The notes beneath the pieces are model-generated. The model saw only the letters and a program-made list of their open reading frames with translations. It searched no databases and was not told the DNA's origin. This document shows, piece by piece, positions 7,204-44,014 of a stretch of DNA of 64,000 nt (positions are counted from its first letter, which is position 1; each line of letters opens with the position of its first letter). Position numbers and translations under genes: made by a program. The stretch spans positions 614,535 to 678,534 of the forward strand of contig CP129475.1 of assembly GCA_030583785.1 (NCBI GenBank). Reading direction: 5' to 3'. Origin of the DNA: Candidatus Dojkabacteria bacterium (GTDB lineage: Bacteria; Patescibacteriota; Dojkabacteria; B142; OLB20).

Positions 7204-7333
7204 GCCACAGGCCACAACTCGGGGTAGAACTCGAACTTCGCTATGCTCGTTCTCGCTAACTCCCGGTTTGTCGAACCCATGGGTTCTCTCTCATACAATC
7301 TCCACGCTGCCCACCACTTCGTGATGGTCACCG

Positions 7334-7785
7334 TGGAGATGGCGGGAATCGAACCCGCGTCCAGAAAATCGTGCATCTATGTTCTACAAGCTTAGCAGAT
7401 TTATTTCAGACGATTGGTAATAGAAACCTGCAAAAACCACCAATCGACTGCATGCATCTTCTTCGCTGTGCAAAGCATACAAGTCTGCACAGTCTGCATC
7501 CTGACTGTGTTTCTCCTTTAGTATCCCATCAGGAAAAGATAACTAAAGAAGGCTTCTAACCGCGAGCTAGGCTCGAGCGGTCTTAGGCAGCTAAGTTGAG
7601 CTGGAAGCCGAAGAAAGAGTTAACTTTCTCAGCAACTGCATCAAAAAAGCTTTGTGCTTTGTTTTCGACGATTATTTTTGTCTTCCCAGTGAGTTCTGGG
7701 AGTGTCGGTTTAGTTACAAAGATACCGAACAAAACTTTGGCTTGCCATAAACACACTATATTCTCTGTCAAAACCGGTCATCCCC
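7334..7785 (-). ncRNA. ssrA: tmRNA (ssrA)
   Basis: Minus-strand 5' end GGGGATGACCGGTTTTGACAGAG, with a G3.U wobble in the acceptor stem. 3' tRNA-like end GGACGCGGGTTCGATTCCCGCCATCTCCA (T-arm plus acceptor, CCA not encoded). Internal tag reading frame ...AEKVNSFFGFQLNLAA-TAA ends in the canonical LAA-stop. Confidence 0.8.
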
Positions 7786-15089: not shown

Positions 15090-15574
15090 AGATGATTATT
15101 ATTGTCTACATAATTAATACACTTTTAGTCTTAACAATTTCTTAACTTGTCCACAATTAGGGATGATTGATTGAATATCTTGTTACAAAACAAAAGAAAA
15201 CAAGACAGAAACAGCTTTTTTCACCACTACCTTTCCTCTACCAATCGATCTCGTTGCCAGACAATAATTTTCGGTTGATTCTTGCACTTGAGCCGACCGA
15301 ACAGATACCGATACCTGCAAGTTCGTACATTAATTCTCTATAAGCATGAAATAGAATTGTCGAGTGGACCCTGTATTAAAAACCCAAAGAAAATACTAAT
15401 CGTAACCACAATTACCTACCCTCCCTCAGCTTACAACAAACTTCTTAACTTCTCATGAATAATTGATTTTTACATTAAATAATTAGAAAGCTAAGTTTGT
15501 TCAACTATTATATTCAATAATTGCTTATCGATCATTTCTTTGTTAGAATTAATCTCAAATCAAATAACAATGCG

Positions 15575-15770
15575 TTGAACCGACCTAGTCATCGGGGAGC
15601 AAAGGAAAGAACATCAGTTTTTCTGACTAGTAGACTCCTTCGGGTAGGCCCGAAATAGCCGCAAGAGATGCCCGAAAAGGCATGGATCAGGGTGGAACCT
15701 CCTTATATATCGAAGGACCCTATCCGACAATCGCAGCTGTAATGCGGTTGGCGGATAGGGTTTTTTGTAT
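15575..15770 (+). promoter_or_regulatory. T-box-like leader riboswitch upstream of valS
   Basis: Conserved T-box-like sequence ATCAGGGTGGAACCTCC (cf. AGGGUGGNACCGCG) at ~15692-15708, directly 5' of an intrinsic terminator. Possible Stem-I elements: GTTGA k-turn-like motif, a GTCA loop (Val codon GUC plus purine), and AGAGA. Confidence 0.5.
15721..15766 (+). terminator. rho-independent terminator / T-box terminator hairpin
   Basis: ccctatccg...cggataggg perfect 9-bp stem followed by tttttt. Confidence 0.65.
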
Positions 15771-15785
15771 CTTATAAACATATAT

Positions 15786-18665
15786 ATGCTAACCAAGGGA
15801 CCATACGAAGCAACAATAACAGAGGAATCAATATTAAATTATTGGCTCGAAAATAAATTTTTTAAACCGGAATATCATCCAGAAAAGGGGCTACAGACCG
15901 AGGCAGAAATGCGTGCCGACCAGAGAGATCCTTTCACTATCGTTAATCCCCCACCGAACGCATATATGCGACCACATATCGGGAATGTTTCCGGATATGC
16001 ATACCAAGATGTTTTACTTCGTTACAACAGATTACTTGGTAAGAAAGTACTGGGACAACCCGGAAAAGACCACGCAGGCATACAAGGCGAGGTGGTAGTA
16101 GAAAAGATATTTCTAGAAAATAAAAAAAAGAGCAAACAAGATCTAGGACGCGAAAAATTCTACAAAGCATCGTATGCGCATTTTCAAAAACTTATGCCCA
16201 TGGTTATGGCCGACGAAAAAAGGATTGGTTTGTCAAGCGACTACGAGCGCAACCTATTTACACTTGACCCAAGAGTCGTAAATACGATTTTGAACACCTT
16301 TGTTTCTCTATATTCAGACGGAATGGTATATAAGGGCGTTCGCATCGTAAATTGGGATCCTGTTGCCAAGACCACCCTTGCAGATATCGATACCGAAAGA
16401 GTCGAAAGGGAAACGGAACTTGTTTATATTAAATACCCGCTAAAGCAAGAAATTGATGGAATAAATCATATTACAGTTGCCACAACTCGAGCAGAGACAA
16501 TGCTGGGAGATACCGCCGTTATTGTTAACCCTAAAGACGAGAGGTACAAAAAACTTATTGGAGCGATAGTGGTGCTTCCACTTGCTAATAGAGAAATCCC
16601 AATCATTACCTCTGAAAGGGTTGAGAGTGAATTTGGAACTGGAGCAGTCAAACTTACTCCGGCACATTCATACGACGATTATGTCATGATGAACGAATGG
16701 AACTCTGTTGCCAAGGAAAACGAAAAGATCGGATATATCAATGTAATTAATAAGCAGGCCAAGATGTACGGCCCAATCCCCGAAAGATACATTGGACTTA
16801 GCACCGAAGAAGCTAGAAGCAAAGTACTTGTTGACCTCGAAGAACAGGGACTCATCGAAAAGAAAGAGGCTCACACACAAAGTGTAATGGTCGGAGAAAG
16901 ATCGAAAGCTGTCATCGAACAGATAATGTCTTCACAGTGGTTCATTGATGTGGAAAGGCTTAAACAGCCGGCAATCGAGGCTGTAAAATCAGGAGAAATC
17001 CAGATCCATCCAAAATACATGACAAAAAAATACTTAACCTGGATGGAAAACCTTCATGACTGGCCAGTCTCAAGGTCTCTATGGTGGGGATACCGAATTC
17101 CTGTTTGGTACAAAGGTGAGCTTAGTGAAGATATTGACGAAAAAGGTCAGGTGATAGAGACAGTTGGAGGAGAGAAAGTCGAAAATATTAACGATGCAGT
17201 CAATAAAGGACTTGCCAAGATTCAACTTGATCCACCGGGAACAACATTTGCAGTTATTCGACATGGAGCGACAGAGCATAATCAGGAGCACAGATTAACA
17301 GGCAGAATCGACACCCCCTTAAGTGAATCAGGAATTAAAGAATGTGAGATTTATGCAAATAATCTGCAAGAATCCTTTGATTTGATAATCTCTTCGCCAC
17401 AAAAAAGGGCTTTTCAAACCGCAGAAATCATTGCTGCTAAACAAAACAGCAAACCAAACATAATTACCGACGAAAGACTTAGAGAAAGAGACTTTGGTAT
17501 CGCCGAGGGCAAAAACTGGGAAGAACTAATTACAGAAAATCCTGAACTGGCAAAAAGCAACTCTCCTCTCTTTCAACCCGAACTTCCTGAGGCAGAAACA
17601 ATTACAGAAGTTGAAAGCCGTGTTGAAGATTGGATCAAAGAAACCGCCGAAAAATATACAGGAAAGAAAATTCTTGTCGTAACACATGCGGGCGTGTACC
17701 GAGTAATTAGAAGACAACTTGGAGGAATGAATGCAGACGAATCCAGAACCGATATTGCCAACCTGCAAATGGAGAGGTATCACATTAAAGAGGAGGGCTG
17801 GATTCAAGATGAAGATGTGTTTGATACCTGGTTTAGTTCTGGACAATGGCCGTATGCCACGCTAAGAGCAAACAACATCAATGACTGCTTCTTTCCATCT
17901 GATGTTATGGAGACAGGACACGATATCCTTGAACTATGGGTAAGTCGAATGATCATGCTCTCGTTATACACAGAAAACAAGATTCCTTTCAAACATGTTT
18001 ATTTACATGGTCTGGTTAAAGCTCCCGACGGGCAAAAGATGAGTAAATCTAAAGGGAATGTCATTGCTCCGGAAGAAATCATTACCAAATACGGAGCTGA
18101 TTCACTAAGACTACTTTATGTAGTTGGGAATCGAGCCGGTTCAAGTTATCCTGTGAGCTACGAAAAACTTGAAGGATACAAAAGATTTCTTAACAAAATC
18201 TGGAATGCAGCGAAATTCGTTCTTTCAAATCTTGAAGATTTAAACATTGATCATCTTGCAAATACCGATATAAAGAATCTTAACCTTGCCGAGACCGATA
18301 GAACTATGCTCGATCATATGAACCTTTTAATCGCAGACACCACGCGTAGATTGGATAACTTTAATCTAGGCATTGCTGCGCAAGAGTTATACGATTCATT
18401 CTGGCATACTTTTGCGGATATCTATTTAGAAGAAGTAAAAATGCGCTTGTATACAAAAGATAAGGACGGCAACCCTATAAATACTTCTGAGCAAGAAAAA
18501 CAAAGCAGATTTGCAGCACAGTGGACTCTGTACAACTGCTTTAGAGAGTATCTAATTCTATTGCACCCATTTATTCCGTTTATAAGCGAACGGATTTGGC
18601 AAGATCTACCGAAAACAGACAAAGAAAGTAAAACAATTATGTATTCTCGCTGGCCCCAGCGTTAG
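15786..18665 (+). CDS. valS: valyl-tRNA synthetase with an inserted histidine-phosphatase-superfamily domain
   Basis: ValRS blocks: PPPNAYMRPHIGN (HIGH-region variant), GKDHAGIQ, VNWDPVAKTTLADIDTE, WPVSRSLWWGYRIPVWY, DTWFSSGQWP, KMSKSKGN. An insert at ~17110-17810 carries the RHG phosphatase signature (IRHGATEHN ... LVVTHAGVYR). The ATG at 15786 was chosen because the longer ORF start overlaps the leader terminator. Confidence 0.9.
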   Translation: MLTKGPYEATITEESILNYWLENKFFKPEYHPEKGLQTEAEMRADQRDPFTIVNPPPNAYMRPHIGNVSGYAYQDVLLRYNRLLGKKVLGQPGKDHAGIQGEVVVEKIFLENKKKSKQDLGREKFYKASYAHFQKLMPMVMADEKRIGLSSDYERNLFTLDPRVVNTILNTFVSLYSDGMVYKGVRIVNWDPVAKTTLADIDTERVERETELVYIKYPLKQEIDGINHITVATTRAETMLGDTAVIVNPKDERYKKLIGAIVVLPLANREIPIITSERVESEFGTGAVKLTPAHSYDDYVMMNEWNSVAKENEKIGYINVINKQAKMYGPIPERYIGLSTEEARSKVLVDLEEQGLIEKKEAHTQSVMVGERSKAVIEQIMSSQWFIDVERLKQPAIEAVKSGEIQIHPKYMTKKYLTWMENLHDWPVSRSLWWGYRIPVWYKGELSEDIDEKGQVIETVGGEKVENINDAVNKGLAKIQLDPPGTTFAVIRHGATEHNQEHRLTGRIDTPLSESGIKECEIYANNLQESFDLIISSPQKRAFQTAEIIAAKQNSKPNIITDERLRERDFGIAEGKNWEELITENPELAKSNSPLFQPELPEAETITEVESRVEDWIKETAEKYTGKKILVVTHAGVYRVIRRQLGGMNADESRTDIANLQMERYHIKEEGWIQDEDVFDTWFSSGQWPYATLRANNINDCFFPSDVMETGHDILELWVSRMIMLSLYTENKIPFKHVYLHGLVKAPDGQKMSKSKGNVIAPEEIITKYGADSLRLLYVVGNRAGSSYPVSYEKLEGYKRFLNKIWNAAKFVLSNLEDLNIDHLANTDIKNLNLAETDRTMLDHMNLLIADTTRRLDNFNLGIAAQELYDSFWHTFADIYLEEVKMRLYTKDKDGNPINTSEQEKQSRFAAQWTLYNCFREYLILLHPFIPFISERIWQDLPKTDKESKTIMYSRWPQR

Positions 18666-28029: not shown

Positions 28030-28121
<92 letters not shown>

Positions 28122-42368: not shown

Positions 42369-42399
42369 ATATGCAATAATTGACTAAGCAGCTTTAGTC

Positions 42400-42640
42400 T
42401 TGCTATTATTCGCTTAAGTTCTTCTCGACAGAAAAGGCTTAAATAAGTCCCAGAAAAATGTACGCGAACCATTTTGATGAGAAAGCCTGTGAAGAGCATT
42501 TGTCGAAGCTAGCTTCGAGCAGTTCCAACAATTAAATAGTCAATAAAGTATAATATAAGAGGTGGCACCACTCCTCGTTTTTGGAGTCCTTATGTTTGGC
42601 TATTAGCGTAGTCAGGCATAAGGATTTTTTTATTTTTTAT
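42400..42640 (+). promoter_or_regulatory. T-box-like leader riboswitch upstream of serS with terminator
   Basis: TAAGAGGTGGCACCACTCC (42556-42574) resembles the T-box consensus AGGGUGGNACC. The UGGC would pair with an NCCA end having discriminator G, as in the tRNA-Ser in this window. Followed by terminator tccttatg...cataagga plus T-run (42587-42640). Confidence 0.45.
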
Positions 42641-42649
42641 ATCAAAACT

Positions 42650-44014
42650 ATGGTTGATGTACAGTTTGTAAGAGAAAACCCAGAGCGAATGAGGGCTATC
42701 ATCAATAGCGGAAGAGGCAACCCCGAAAAGGCAAATATCGATCTTTGGCTTAAGCTAGATAAAGAGAGAACACTACTAGTTCAACAACGAGATGCTTTAA
42801 ATACCAAAAAGAATGAGCTAGCAAATTTAGGCAAATCTGGAGCAACAAGCGATGATATCAGAAAAAAAGGACAAGAGCTCAAACAAGAGTCTCAAAAAAT
42901 CGAAGAAAGCCTAACCAGGATCGAGAAAGAATGGCAAGAGATACTTGCGTGGATGCCAAATATTCCACATCAAGATATGCCCGAAGGCAAAGGAGAAGAT
43001 GACAATCTAATAATCAGAGCTTGGGATCCTGCAAATGGTTATGTAGAAAACTTCAACGAAGTGCGTGTAAAAGATTCAGTTAATCCTTTTCCTGCAAGAT
43101 CAATGCATTGGGACAAAGAAGACCTTAAAGCTAAACATCATCTGGAGATTGGAGAAGCACTTGAGCTTATAGATAACAATCAGGGAGCAAAAGTATCCGG
43201 ATCAAGATTTACATACATCGTTGGAGACCTAGCTTTAATGCAGTATGCAATCCAACAATTACTCTTTTCGAAATTGCTGTCTATGGGATTTAAACAAATA
43301 ATCCCTCCCCTGCTGGTTAGAGAAGTTGCATTATTTGGAACAAGTCATTTTCCCGAACAGGTGGATCAGGTCTATAAAATTGACAACACCTATCTTGAAG
43401 ACAGCAGCAAGCCTCTCTACCTTGTTGGCTCTTCAGAGCCATCTAACTTCTCGTACTTCATTGATAAAACTCTAAGCGCAGAAACCCTTCCTATAAAGCT
43501 TTTCGCTTACACTTCTTGTTTTAGGTCAGAGGCGGGATCGTGGGGACGAGATACCAAAGGCATAAAAAGGCTTCATCAGTTCGATAAAATTGAAATGAAT
43601 GTTGTCTGTAACCCCGAAGAATCAGACAAAATATTTGACGAACTTCTGTCAGTTAATGAATGGTTGCTACAAGAGCTTCGACTCCCTTATCATCTGGTTC
43701 TTAAATGCACAGGAGACGCAGGTTACATGGCCAGTTCTAAGCAAATTGATCCAGAAGTCTGGCTTCCTGGTCAAAAGGAGTTTATGGAGGTAATGACAGA
43801 CACCAATACAACCGATTACCAGGCAAGGAGACTAAACATTAAATTCAAGGATGAAACTGGAGCAAAAAAATATGTGCACACAGTTAACGATACTGGAGTT
43901 GCCATGGGAAGAATGTTAATTGCAATCATCGACAATTATCAGCAAGCTGATGGAACGATCAAGGTCCCAGAAGCACTAAGGAAGTTTATGGGCAAAGACT
44001 ATATCGGAAAGTAA
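42650..44014 (+). CDS. serS: seryl-tRNA synthetase
   Basis: N-terminal coiled-coil arm. Class II motifs (motif 2 FRSEAGSWGRDTKGIKRLHQFDKIE, motif 3 GVAMGRMLIAI). Start set to MVDVQFVREN because the longer ORF reads through the leader terminator. Confidence 0.9.
   Translation: MVDVQFVRENPERMRAIINSGRGNPEKANIDLWLKLDKERTLLVQQRDALNTKKNELANLGKSGATSDDIRKKGQELKQESQKIEESLTRIEKEWQEILAWMPNIPHQDMPEGKGEDDNLIIRAWDPANGYVENFNEVRVKDSVNPFPARSMHWDKEDLKAKHHLEIGEALELIDNNQGAKVSGSRFTYIVGDLALMQYAIQQLLFSKLLSMGFKQIIPPLLVREVALFGTSHFPEQVDQVYKIDNTYLEDSSKPLYLVGSSEPSNFSYFIDKTLSAETLPIKLFAYTSCFRSEAGSWGRDTKGIKRLHQFDKIEMNVVCNPEESDKIFDELLSVNEWLLQELRLPYHLVLKCTGDAGYMASSKQIDPEVWLPGQKEFMEVMTDTNTTDYQARRLNIKFKDETGAKKYVHTVNDTGVAMGRMLIAIIDNYQQADGTIKVPEALRKFMGKDYIGK

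Follow-up and report, generated by a model that had tools for sequence, protein, structure and literature searches.

A putative T-box-type attenuator with an unusual front half precedes serS in Candidatus Dojkabacteria

The window (the whole stretch of Candidatus Dojkabacteria DNA analysed, 64 kb in length) contains a seryl-tRNA synthetase gene, serS, whose ATG lies at 42650, and upstream of it a leader whose last U-run ends 8 nt before the gene on the sense strand. The features of the locus are collected in Table 1. The order DnaJ / cupin / leader / serS is kept among related loci, and 13 other Dojkabacteria/WS6 contigs, with SerRS proteins 56-69% identical, also carry the whole leader in front of serS. 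Compensatory base changes are seen across these copies in both the terminator and the 5' domain. Judged by sequence, the leader is conserved within a small clade of Dojkabacteria, a lineage of the candidate phyla radiation (CPR). A covariance model, R1, was run over loci totalling 690 kb, 80 SerRS loci among them, and returned nothing beyond the 14 known leaders. Two SerRS relatives of ~60% identity (L098 and L099) are without the leader, one further locus (L100) is incomplete and a duplicate of L090, and a loosened pattern gave only chance matches in viral contigs.

Table 1 Predicted features of the serS leader and associated genes in the window.
Feature	Sequence or identity	Positions	Strand	Remarks
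Promoter	-35 TTGACT; TG; -10 TATTAT	42380-42409	+	-35 at 42380-85, TG at 42401-02, -10 at 42404-09
P1a, 5' strand	UUCUUCUC	42419-42426	+	pairs with 42489-42496
5' bulge (8 nt)	GACAGAAA	42427-42434	+	ACAGAAA invariant in 14/14
P1b, 5' strand	AGGCUU	42435-42440	+	6-bp helix with 42483-42488
P1 apical loop, expanded		42441-42482	+	28-42 nt across the 14-leader family
P1b 3' strand, then P1a 3' strand	AAGCCU, then GUGAAGAG	42483-88, 42489-96	+	uninterrupted strand
P2 hairpin	CGAAGC UA GCUUCG	42504-42517	+	variable; optional insert between P1 and specifier
Putative specifier	UCC + conserved 3' purine A	42524-26, 42527	+	fixed position before A(C/A)AAYUnAAUA
A-rich linker	ACAAUUAAAUA (42528-38) + AAAG (42545-48)	42528-42548	+	conserved
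Putative antiterminator (T-box discriminator)		42559-42591	+	paired cells 95.5%; geometry exact
A1	GAGG with CCUU	42559-62, 42588-91	+	
Antiterminator bulge	UGGCACC	42563-69	+	variable base C at 42566
A2	ACUCC with GGAGU	42570-74, 42583-87	+	loop UCGUUUUU
Intrinsic terminator		42583-42642	+	hairpin 42583-42628, 20 pairs (terminator scan); U-runs 42625-42642
serS	Pfam Seryl_tRNA_N + tRNA-synt_2b; NCBIfam TIGR00414 (372.6 bits)	42650-44014	+	regulated gene
tRNA-Ser(GCU)		28030-28121	-	G73, encoded CCA; fits UGGC, not the UCC specifier

A promoter/terminator scan identified a promoter-like site reading TTGACT-18-TGnTATTAT at the head of the leader. TTGAC(T) stands 17-18 nt from TGnTAATAT in 13 of the 14 leaders, while in L084 the TG directly abuts TAATAT. 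The position of the site is kept in all 14, and the end of the -10 element lies 7-10 nt from P1 (16-17 nt in L042 and L081). This predicted sigma-70-like promoter is conserved, and would set the 5' end of the RNA 0-3 nt upstream of P1, with a start at ~42416-42419.

The original prediction had placed a T-box-like element upstream of serS by way of the string TAAGAGGTGGCACCACTCC (42556-42574), and this is supported. Within it, AGGUGGCACCACUCC at 42558-42574 builds a predicted antiterminator of helix A1, the 7-nt bulge UGGCACC and helix A2, which alternates with the terminator. The A1/A2 pairing holds in 95.5% of cells over the 14 leaders, compared with 27-55% for slid-partner controls. GGUGG is invariant (14/14) and the full block GGUGGCACCAC is present in 12, with GGUGGCAUCGC in L086 and GGUGGUACCGC in L091. 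Also maintained across the 14 leaders are the bulge ACC and, in the terminal pair of A2, the 3' U; the latter matches the published steric-sensor U (PMC7583486) and counts in favour of a T-box discriminator. The terminator hairpin likewise claimed just 5' of serS was confirmed at its coordinates, with arms tccttatg (42587-42594) and cataagga (42617-42624) followed by T-runs (42625-42642). It ends 20 nt upstream of serS, and its 5' strand is formed by the 3' strands of A2 and A1. RNAalifold recovered 19 terminator pairs on the full alignment of 14 leaders, the majority with compensatory changes. A 28-bit match to rli48 proved to be a terminator look-alike. Several hallmarks of the T-box family are thus found here: A1 and A2 around a 7-nt UGGNACC bulge, a mutually exclusive terminator that uses their 3' strands, and an aminoacyl-tRNA synthetase (aaRS) gene downstream.

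Both strands of the window were scanned for 4-bp helices A1 and A2 around a 7-nt TGGNAYC bulge, followed within 90 nt by a T-run. The full geometry was detected at only two sites, 42563 and 15693, each directly 5' of an aaRS gene. Dinucleotide shuffles yielded a mean of 0.28 such sites, and at least two in 4 of 200 shuffles. Short GGTGGNACC-like motifs, with one mismatch allowed, are present in the window at chance frequency.

The standard T-box model fared poorly. A match to RF00230 had been offered as a check on the original prediction, and its outcome was negative: a focused search of the serS leader gave 12.2 bits (E = 2.8) against a cut-off of 93, aligning only the 3' half. There was no match at the serS leader at the gathering threshold, and none among 10 related serS leaders at E <= 10. 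The model therefore misses the serS leader, which is not a canonical T-box. No K-turn (GA motif), a common but not universal element, was found at the base of Stem I, and the predicted promoter leaves no RNA for one 5' of P1a; a K-turn proposed by cmscan (UGAAGAG...CUUCGAG) was rejected, as it relies on the non-conserved P2 and competes with P1a. Neither a Stem II nor a IIA/B pseudoknot with an F-box was found, the optional and non-conserved P2 being the only helix at hand and no IIA helix being present. In every known T-box variety the specifier sits either in a Stem I side bulge or, where Stem I is short, in its apical loop (PMC7583486); no closed specifier loop of either kind was found in the serS leader. 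Comparison of the aligned leaders suggests that the front half is most likely built unlike that of every described T-box.

The predicted 5' hairpin domain, P1, is backed by covariation. P1a changes from UC/GU to UA/UA, AU/AU and AA/UU among the relatives, and P1b reads GGUUU/AAACC in L082, GGACU/AGUCC in L088 and AAAGGCUA/UGGCUUU in L086. In a hand-registered alignment of P1, 90% of cells were paired and double changes were seen in 13 of 14 pairs; in the covariance-model alignment, 79% of cells were paired, and in neither case was any of 500 shuffles as good. RNAalifold predicted six P1a pairs on the full alignment and, because of register shifts, no pairs on the P1-only alignments. P1a appears in the single-sequence minimum-energy fold of 12 of the 14 leaders, and P1a together with P1b in that of the isolated domain in 11. 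The R1 match spans 42419-42496 (82 bits), and L092, which was held out of training, scored 35 bits. On P1 alone, neither RF00230 nor any other Rfam family gave a match.

The P1 apical loop, three times the canonical size, carries the invariant GUACGCGAACC (42460-70) and an invariant UGAGA (42478-82); P1 with GUACGCGAACC has been seen only upstream of serS. UGAGA fits the consensus of the apical T-loop, UGxRA (PMC7583486), and directly adjoins the 3' strand of P1b. AGAAA (42430-34) would be the 'AG bulge' T-loop, for which a consensus, AGAGA, and a bulge size have been published (PMC7583486, PMC11404447). The 8-nt bulge, which agrees with the published size and has AGAAA at its end, the 6-bp helix and the apical UGAGA are invariant and follow one another in double T-loop order, although the loop runs to 28-42 nt. 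From this match, which is at the level of motifs only, we infer that the three elements correspond to the elbow-binding top of Stem I.

Downstream of P1, the P2 hairpin varies among the relatives in sequence and length and is absent from L084, L085, L087, L088, L089 and L092. A candidate specifier follows; 13 of the 14 leaders have it at a constant position, reading UCC-A in 10, UCA-G in L082, UCG-A in L087 and UCG-G in L089, with L085 ambiguous (its register allows either UUC or UCA). Variable columns flank the U and C, which are themselves near-invariant; the third base is C in ten cases, G in two and A in one, and a purine comes next. By comparative assignment, this would be the serine codon plus purine expected of a T-box specifier, on the evidence of 14 leaders from one clade in which the third codon base varies in only 3-4. 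A dominance of C at that base is shared with known T-boxes, for which it has been published as the 'C-rule'. The original prediction had looked to a serine codon in a specifier loop. A UCN-purine candidate is indeed there, but the loop is not: UCC stands on an open strand 3' of P1, with no conserved closing helix around the codon. Thermodynamic folding did not show UCC to be consistently unpaired in the leaders, and partition-function accessibility of UCC and UGGN was noisy and uninformative on these A/U-rich sequences.

Other candidates in this region were rejected. UCG in the P2 loop (42503-05) was set aside as a specifier because P2 is variable and missing in six relatives. A closing helix around UUCCA (AUU.../...AAUU) amounted, by eye, to A/U-rich chance pairings in shifting registers with no consistent covariation. 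UUCCAUACA is loosely similar to CCGUUACA, the F-box region of valS leaders, a likeness by which UCC could be structural rather than a codon; an F-box/IIA-B identity of UUCCAUACA was rejected, there being no partner helix for IIA. Between the putative specifier and the T-box sequence, (A)AAAG ... AUAAA is kept, with a Stem III-like hairpin in only 3 of 14 leaders (L084, L086 and L091). AAAG probably corresponds to the purine string beside Stem III in canonical T-boxes, which are known to carry an RRRxG-stem III-AA motif (PMC7583486).

Thirteen of the 14 leaders have C as the N of UGGN and the remaining one has U, and both bases can pair with G73. Complementarity between this base and the discriminator was confirmed using the window tRNA-Ser(GCU), which ends in G73-CCA, and the match of C (42566) to its G73 stands as originally predicted. 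G73 is common to bacterial tRNA-Ser, however, and the discriminator match therefore does not single out the local tRNA gene. A UCC codon instead predicts tRNA-Ser(GGA) as the partner, not the local tRNA-Ser(GCU) favoured originally, which reads AGY. No tRNA-Ser(GGA) gene was found in the 64-kb window, where tRNA-Ser(GCU) is the only tRNA-Ser, and no tRNA genes were found in the related loci searched.

Taken together, comparison of the leaders shows a set of conserved parts comprising the putative promoter, P1, the UCN-purine triplet, the UGGC antiterminator and the mutually exclusive terminator. We propose, with a probability of roughly 70%, that the 240 bases 5' of serS are a T-box-type transcription attenuator sensing uncharged tRNA-Ser. 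Under a rather improbable alternative, the T-box discriminator would operate without codon reading: P1 would recognise the shape of tRNA-Ser (its elbow and/or long variable arm), UGGC would sense charging and UUCCA would be structural or linker sequence, for example an F-box vestige. The resemblance of UUCCAUACA to CCGUUACA, the restriction of P1 with its invariant 11-mer to serS and the position of UCC in no loop would all suit this explanation. Yet a four-fold degenerate codon would be expected to give just this pattern, in which U and C hardly vary, the third base is free and a purine follows, UUCC is without a IIA helix partner in leaders lacking P2, and every known T-box variety reads an anticodon (PMC7583486). 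It is considerably less likely that the specifier is instead a loop-mounted codon within P1, in the 5' variable part of the apical loop (AGU/UCC, 42446-42450). Although some serine codon occurs there in 12 of the 14 leaders (AGUCC, AUCU, UCA, AGU), neither its position nor its codon family is fixed and it is absent in L087 and L088; by our own estimate, 10-15 overlapping triplets would supply a serine codon by chance in ~60-75% of cases. Strand polarity would also be expected to aim the tRNA body at the base of P1, away from UGAGA and AGAAA.

We attach similarly little credence to the leader being something other than a tRNA switch, such as a protein-mediated attenuator (SerRS autoregulation on a tRNA-like P1, for instance) or one responding to another ligand, in which UGGCACC would be incidental. 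That P1 matches no Rfam family and that the leader is serS-specific would accord with this. Conversely, A1 and A2 flank a 7-nt bulge overlapped by a terminator, and ACC and the 3' U have persisted in 14 lineages; this is the specific T-box device, and the same genome has a bona fide T-box before valS. Finally, the short GGTGGNACC-type motifs found at chance frequency with one mismatch might suggest a fortuitous resemblance beside an ordinary terminator, but the full geometry occurs only twice in the window, both times before aaRS genes, and conservation with covariation in 13 other contigs refutes such an explanation, to which we assign next to no weight.

The second site of the scan, 15693, belongs to the valS leader of the window, in which GUC-A occupies the apical loop of an ultrashort Stem I and a Stem IIA/B-like element is also present; valS leaders also carry CGGGUAAGCCCGUUACAGC, unlike the serS leader. 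From these features, valS in the same genome is predicted to be T-box controlled, independently of the serS leader. Of the earlier view that two aaRS genes of the window share one leader architecture, the part concerning two T-box leaders holds, but the architecture is not common to both, since serS has neither the ultrashort Stem I nor the IIA/B-like element. The predicted folds of the two leaders are of different T-box types. Further CPR T-boxes were encountered upstream of valS (L094-L096), of another serS (L048) and of a GlyRS-like gene (L001). RF00230 scores of the CPR T-boxes were 60, 45, 40 and 40 bits, all below the gathering score, with 12 bits or none for the serS class.

Comparison with the transcriptional class I, long-Stem I type (Bacillus tyrS/glyQS, RF00230) reveals a shared 7-nt UGGNACC bulge between A1 and A2, an overlapping intrinsic terminator, an N that matches the discriminator base, a cognate codon plus purine, an aaRS gene downstream, A-rich purines before the discriminator and an apparent AG-bulge / 6-bp helix / apical UGxRA arrangement. 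Unlike that type, however, the serS RNA is predicted to begin partway up Stem I, with the middle helix, and so has no K-turn, basal helix or 5' half of the specifier loop (AGUA / S-turn). Its codon is on an open strand and in some leaders follows an inserted hairpin, its 28-42-nt apical loop holds the extra invariant 11-mer, and ACU stands in place of the GCG in the T-box sequence. With glyQS-type T-boxes, the serS leader shares a Stem I joined to the discriminator via a single-stranded purine-rich linker with no Stem II domain, whereas glyQS retains Stem III and a specifier loop that is closed, in most cases together with a K-turn. Loss of Stem II in glyQS has been explained by strong GGC:GCC pairing; UCC:GGA, with two G-C pairs, may offer a parallel. 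The class II T-boxes with ultrashort Stem I (Actinobacteria ileS) and the CPR T-boxes have the same discriminator and are likewise reduced relative to the Bacillus archetype; the CPR ultrashort forms, none of which reaches the gathering score of Rfam, share a genome or a phylum with the serS leader. The class II and CPR T-boxes, by contrast, mount the codon on a short hairpin that bears a GA motif, where the apical loop ends on its 3' side, and they retain both Stem II and the IIA/B pseudoknot; the serS leader has instead a long hairpin at its 5' end, bearing platform-like motifs, and is without Stem II/IIA-B.

How the proposed tRNA-Ser attenuator could work is suggested by this arrangement. 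RNA polymerase would start just upstream of P1, which would fold first. The AGAAA bulge, 6-bp helix and UGAGA would make up a double-T-loop platform stacked against the tRNA elbow in the manner of the top of a canonical long Stem I, and the anticodon of tRNA-Ser(GGA) would pair with UCC, offered at the base of P1 by the open strand and not in a closed loop. Were the tRNA uncharged, its G73-C-C-A end would pair with UGGC (42563-66) and lock the antiterminator, allowing read-through into serS; were it charged, the antiterminator would be left unstabilised, the 42583-42628 hairpin would form and transcription would stop at the U-run. At about even odds, the leader represents an undescribed Dojkabacteria (CPR) subclass of T-box with a 5'-terminal, 'bottomless' Stem I and an elbow platform that includes the extra invariant GUACGCGAACC, lacking K-turn, closed specifier loop and Stem II and presenting its codon on an open strand at the hairpin foot.

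T-boxes are classic RNA sensors of tRNA charging. If true, the arrangement proposed here would add, in a transcriptional switch, a third mode of specifier presentation to the side bulge and the apical loop. If the architecture holds, it would constitute a natural experiment on minimal tRNA decoding by a transcriptional T-box, by platform and codon without K-turn, specifier-loop S-turn or Stem II, as well as a compact scaffold for engineering. A search of the accessible literature found no paper linking T-boxes to CPR or Patescibacteria, and T-box catalogues rest almost wholly on RF00230-based searches (TBDB). As none of the CPR T-boxes encountered reaches the Rfam gathering score, these reduced genomes probably harbour more T-box regulation than is annotated, and a covariance model of the serS leader class would allow many more members to be found.

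In the serS leader, the sequence quoted by the original prediction (TAAGAGGTGGCACCACTCC) was present at 42556-42574, and the terminator claimed just before serS was found with both its arms, tccttatg (42587-42594) and cataagga (42617-42624), followed by T-runs. The 454-aa ORF starting at ATG 42650 is serS, containing Pfam Seryl_tRNA_N and the class II core and scoring 372.6 bits with NCBIfam TIGR00414. By sequence, the arrangement of helices A1 and A2 around a UGGN bulge is that of a T-box antiterminator, and the 5' strand of the terminator is made up of the 3' strands of the antiterminator. The terminator also lies within an Rfam match to the Listeria sRNA rli48 (42537-42655; 28 bits against a cut-off of 100), which was judged a meaningless look-alike.

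Features of the window discussed in the text, in window coordinates
Feature	Position	Strand	Description
tmRNA	7331-7785	-	
valS leader	15556-15770	+	T-box, ultrashort Stem I, IIA/B-like element (15639-15659), Stem III, intrinsic terminator
valS	15786-18665	+	
tRNA-Ser(GCU)	28030-28121	-	ends ...CCUCUCC-G-CCA
Promoter-like site	42380-42409	+	TTGACT-18-(TG)TATTAT; consensus scan
P1 (5'-terminal hairpin of the serS leader)	42419-42496	+	8-bp P1a, 8-nt 5' bulge, 6-bp P1b, apical loop; comparison of 14 leaders
Putative serS antiterminator RNA	42559-42591	+	GAGG-UGGCACC-ACUCC-UCGUUUUU-GGAGU-CCUU; A1, 7-nt bulge, A2 and loop
Terminator-like hairpin	42583-42628	+	20 pairs, T-tail; consensus scan

With one mismatch allowed, the loose motif GGTGGNACC turns up in the window about as often as expected by chance. 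The full geometry (A1 and A2 of 4 bp each around a TGGNAYC bulge, with a T-run no more than 90 nt away) was found at 42563 and 15693 only, both directly upstream of an aminoacyl-tRNA synthetase (aaRS) gene on the sense strand; dinucleotide shuffles of the window gave a mean of 0.28 sites, with at least two in 4 of 200. Conservation among relatives is stronger evidence against chance than this shuffle test. Across the serS leaders compared, the antiterminator helices are near-invariant (95.5% paired, against 27-55% when slid) and most of 19 terminator pairs show compensatory changes.

The source organism is assigned to Dojkabacteria/WS6. Its ValRS shares 99% identity with the one in 'candidate division WS6 bacterium OLB21', and the SerRS loci nearest to its own also belong to WS6/Dojkabacteria. 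Related leaders were drawn from a genome collection (L042, WS6 OLB20), from contigs encoding the closest SerRS proteins (L081-L084, in which the order DnaJ, cupin, leader, serS is kept) and from a metagenome scan using a pattern of two invariant blocks (L085-L092); one further pattern match, L093, was left out as a chance match. This gave 14 leaders in all, each directly upstream of a serS, the encoded SerRS being 56-69% identical to that of the window. R1, a covariance model of the 5' domain, matched these 14 leaders only in 690 kb including 80 SerRS loci from many phyla, and gave 35 bits with L092, which was outside its training set. Two more SerRS relatives of approximately 60% identity were without any such leader, and the class appears restricted in distribution. 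Among loci L001-L080, the window SerRS is 53-57% identical to SerRS from Gemmatimonadota, Latescibacterota, Terriglobia and Chloroflexota and just 35-41% identical to most others from the candidate phyla radiation (CPR), a split that points either to a pair of SerRS types within the CPR or to gene transfer.

The 5'-strand bulge of P1 is NACAGAAA, with ACAGAAA invariant, whilst the 3' strand runs unbroken from P1b to P1a. The apical loop (28-42 nt) contains an invariant UGAGA, which directly precedes the 3' strand of P1b, and the 11-mer GUACGCGAACC (42460-42470), invariant in 14/14 leaders and without a pairing partner within the leader. Perhaps by coincidence, CGAACC within this 11-mer is complementary to GGUUCG in the T-arm of tRNAs. 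Covariation in the predicted helices is clear: the two loop-proximal P1a pairs change from UC/GU to UA/UA, AU/AU, AA/UU and UC/GA, and P1b from GGCUU/AAGCC to GGUUU/AAACC and GGACU/AGUCC. A pseudo-alignment, biased toward the structure because its register was chosen per sequence, had 90.3% of cells paired (slid controls 42-61%) with double changes in 13 of 14 pairs, values reached by none of 500 shuffles. The model-made alignment, in which several register errors are left, had 78.6% of cells paired (slid controls at most 69%; 0/500 shuffles). Independently of the alignments, the minimum-energy fold of isolated P1 contained P1a and P1b with the bulge in 11/14 sequences.

In a long Stem I the tRNA elbow is bound by a platform of two interlocked T-loops, with consensus AGAGA (the 'AG bulge', 5' strand) and UGxRA (apical loop) (PMC7583486). 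In Bacillus glyQS leaders the AG bulge measures 8 nt, and the numbering of a Listeria example implies that approximately 6 bp separate this bulge from an apical loop of 12 nt (PMC11404447). P1 shows the same order, all of it invariant: an 8-nt 5' bulge that ends with AGAAA, a helix of 6 bp and an apical loop that ends with UGAGA. We give even odds that P1 is the top of a Stem I carrying this platform. On that reading, which comes from motifs and has no support from RF00230 (the Rfam T-box model), P1 would represent the top two-thirds of a Stem I of the long type. The promoter elements TTGAC(T), a 17-18-nt spacer and TGnTAATAT are kept in 13/14 leaders, the exception being L084, where TG abuts TAATAT directly, and 7-10 nt separate the end of the -10 element from the first helix (16-17 nt in two leaders). 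Given this position, and assuming a start at the normal 6-8 nt past the -10, the RNA 5' end would lie 0-3 nt before P1. Because transcription would start at P1a, the lower third of Stem I (5' half of the specifier loop, K-turn and basal helix) would have been lost.

Several positions were weighed for the specifier. UCG in the loop of P2, the variable hairpin 3' of P1, was ruled out because P2 is dispensable: neither its sequence nor its length is constant, and six leaders lack it. In the variable part of the P1 loop, serine codons occur at shifting positions, two leaders having none, and these were likewise rejected. Two further stretches are conserved, U-UCC-A-(U)-A(C/A)AAYUnAAUA and (A)AAAG...AUAAA, the latter with a small hairpin in just three leaders. 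The triplet at 42524-42526, fixed in position relative to the conserved blocks, is UCC-A in 10 leaders, UCA-G in L082, UCG-A in L087 and UCG-G in L089; L085 reads UUC-A or UCA-U, according to a 1-nt register. Its first two bases are (near-)invariant, whilst the third (in three or four independent variants only) and the columns on either side vary, as expected of a four-fold degenerate serine codon. A trailing purine and a third-position preference for C are T-box hallmarks (literature including PMC7583486). The UCC block is loosely similar to the F-box region of valS leaders, and thermodynamic folding gave inconsistent accessibility for the triplet. We lean toward UCC at 42524-42526 as the specifier. 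The serine codon sought in a specifier loop has a candidate kept in comparison; it sits 3' of P1. UGAGA precedes it by 19-22 nt in leaders without P2; the counterpart in B. subtilis glyQS is 24 nt. Strand polarity fits this position too: a tRNA bound there would have its body extending up alongside P1.

From a UCC specifier, the predicted partner is tRNA-Ser(GGA). The proposed match of UGGC to the local tRNA-Ser(GCU) holds in part: its discriminator is G, its CCA is encoded, and such a G73-CCA end would fit, but this tRNA reads AGY and is therefore not the predicted ligand. No tRNA genes were found in the related loci.

At gathering thresholds, Rfam returned the tmRNA and the tRNA and nothing else in the window; the tmRNA, at 121 bits, carries large insertions that the Rfam model lacks and encodes an unusually long tag of 28 aa, VENKAQSFFDAVAEKVNSFFGFQLNLAA. 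The suggested RF00230 check went against the serS leader, which scored 12.2 bits (E = 2.8) in a focused permissive search against a cut-off of 93, aligning essentially through the T-box sequence alone. The K-turn placed by this alignment is doubtful, sitting on a hairpin that relatives do not conserve. P1 searched alone with Rfam gave no T-box match, nor did RF00230 in the 10 related serS leaders scanned (E <= 10). Known T-boxes of every variety carry the specifier in one of two places, a side bulge where Stem I is long or intermediate and the apical loop where it is short; transcriptional T-boxes generally require a long Stem I with platform (PMC7583486). The serS leader resembles T-boxes in its predicted working and discriminator, and departs from them in how the specifier is housed, in the K-turn and in the Rfam score, three features of membership. 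For these reasons we would classify it as a variant T-box, neither a plain member nor a new class. No literature linking T-boxes with the CPR or Patescibacteria was found in a search of incomplete coverage, and an earlier description may exist. That the leader is a T-box-type, tRNA-Ser-responsive attenuator we put at a probability of roughly 0.85; the full statement, of a T-box-type attenuator that senses uncharged tRNA-Ser and has a front half unlike that of described T-boxes, is a good deal likelier than otherwise.

The valS antiterminator is perfect (AGGG-UGGAACC-UCCUU...AAGGA-CCCU; bulge at 15693-15699), and a terminator is present as well. Its front half consists of a short hairpin, CCGA-(CCUA GUC A)-UCGG, with GCGUUGAA on its 5' side and GGAGC on its 3' side; the valine codon GUC (15588-15590) plus A occupies the 3' end of the apical loop. 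Three relatives have valS leaders of this arrangement, with loops ACUCGUCAC, CUCGUCA and AUUAACGUCA, and in all these leaders CGGGUA(A/G)GCCCG(U/A)(U/A)A(C/U)AGC, IIA/B-like, follows the short hairpin. RF00230 gave approximately 40 bits in two of the three relatives and no match in the window's own valS leader. The bulge has UGGA in the window (15696) and in the related locus L096 (about 665), and UGGU in L094 and L095. A73 is expected of bacterial tRNA-Val, which the A of UGGA would face. The ultrashort Stem I has been tied to translational control and not to terminators (PMC7583486); the valS leader carries a terminator. Within ValRS itself, a histidine-phosphatase domain (His_Phos_1) is inserted at residues ~497-680, and in Dojkabacteria homologues various other domains (HAD, PF06821 serine hydrolase, GNAT) are inserted or fused.

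T-boxes of the same ultrashort kind, under the Rfam gathering score, precede serS in a distant CPR lineage (L048, 542-731; 60 bits; short Stem I loop CUUUCC, Stem II, F-box CCCGUUA) and a GlyRS-like ORF (L001, 1276-1406; 45 bits; UGGA; loop CUUUGGCAA with GGC-A). A T-box regulon had been proposed from two aaRS leaders of shared architecture. The decoding architectures of the two differ; the source genome is nonetheless predicted to have T-box control at two aaRS genes or more.
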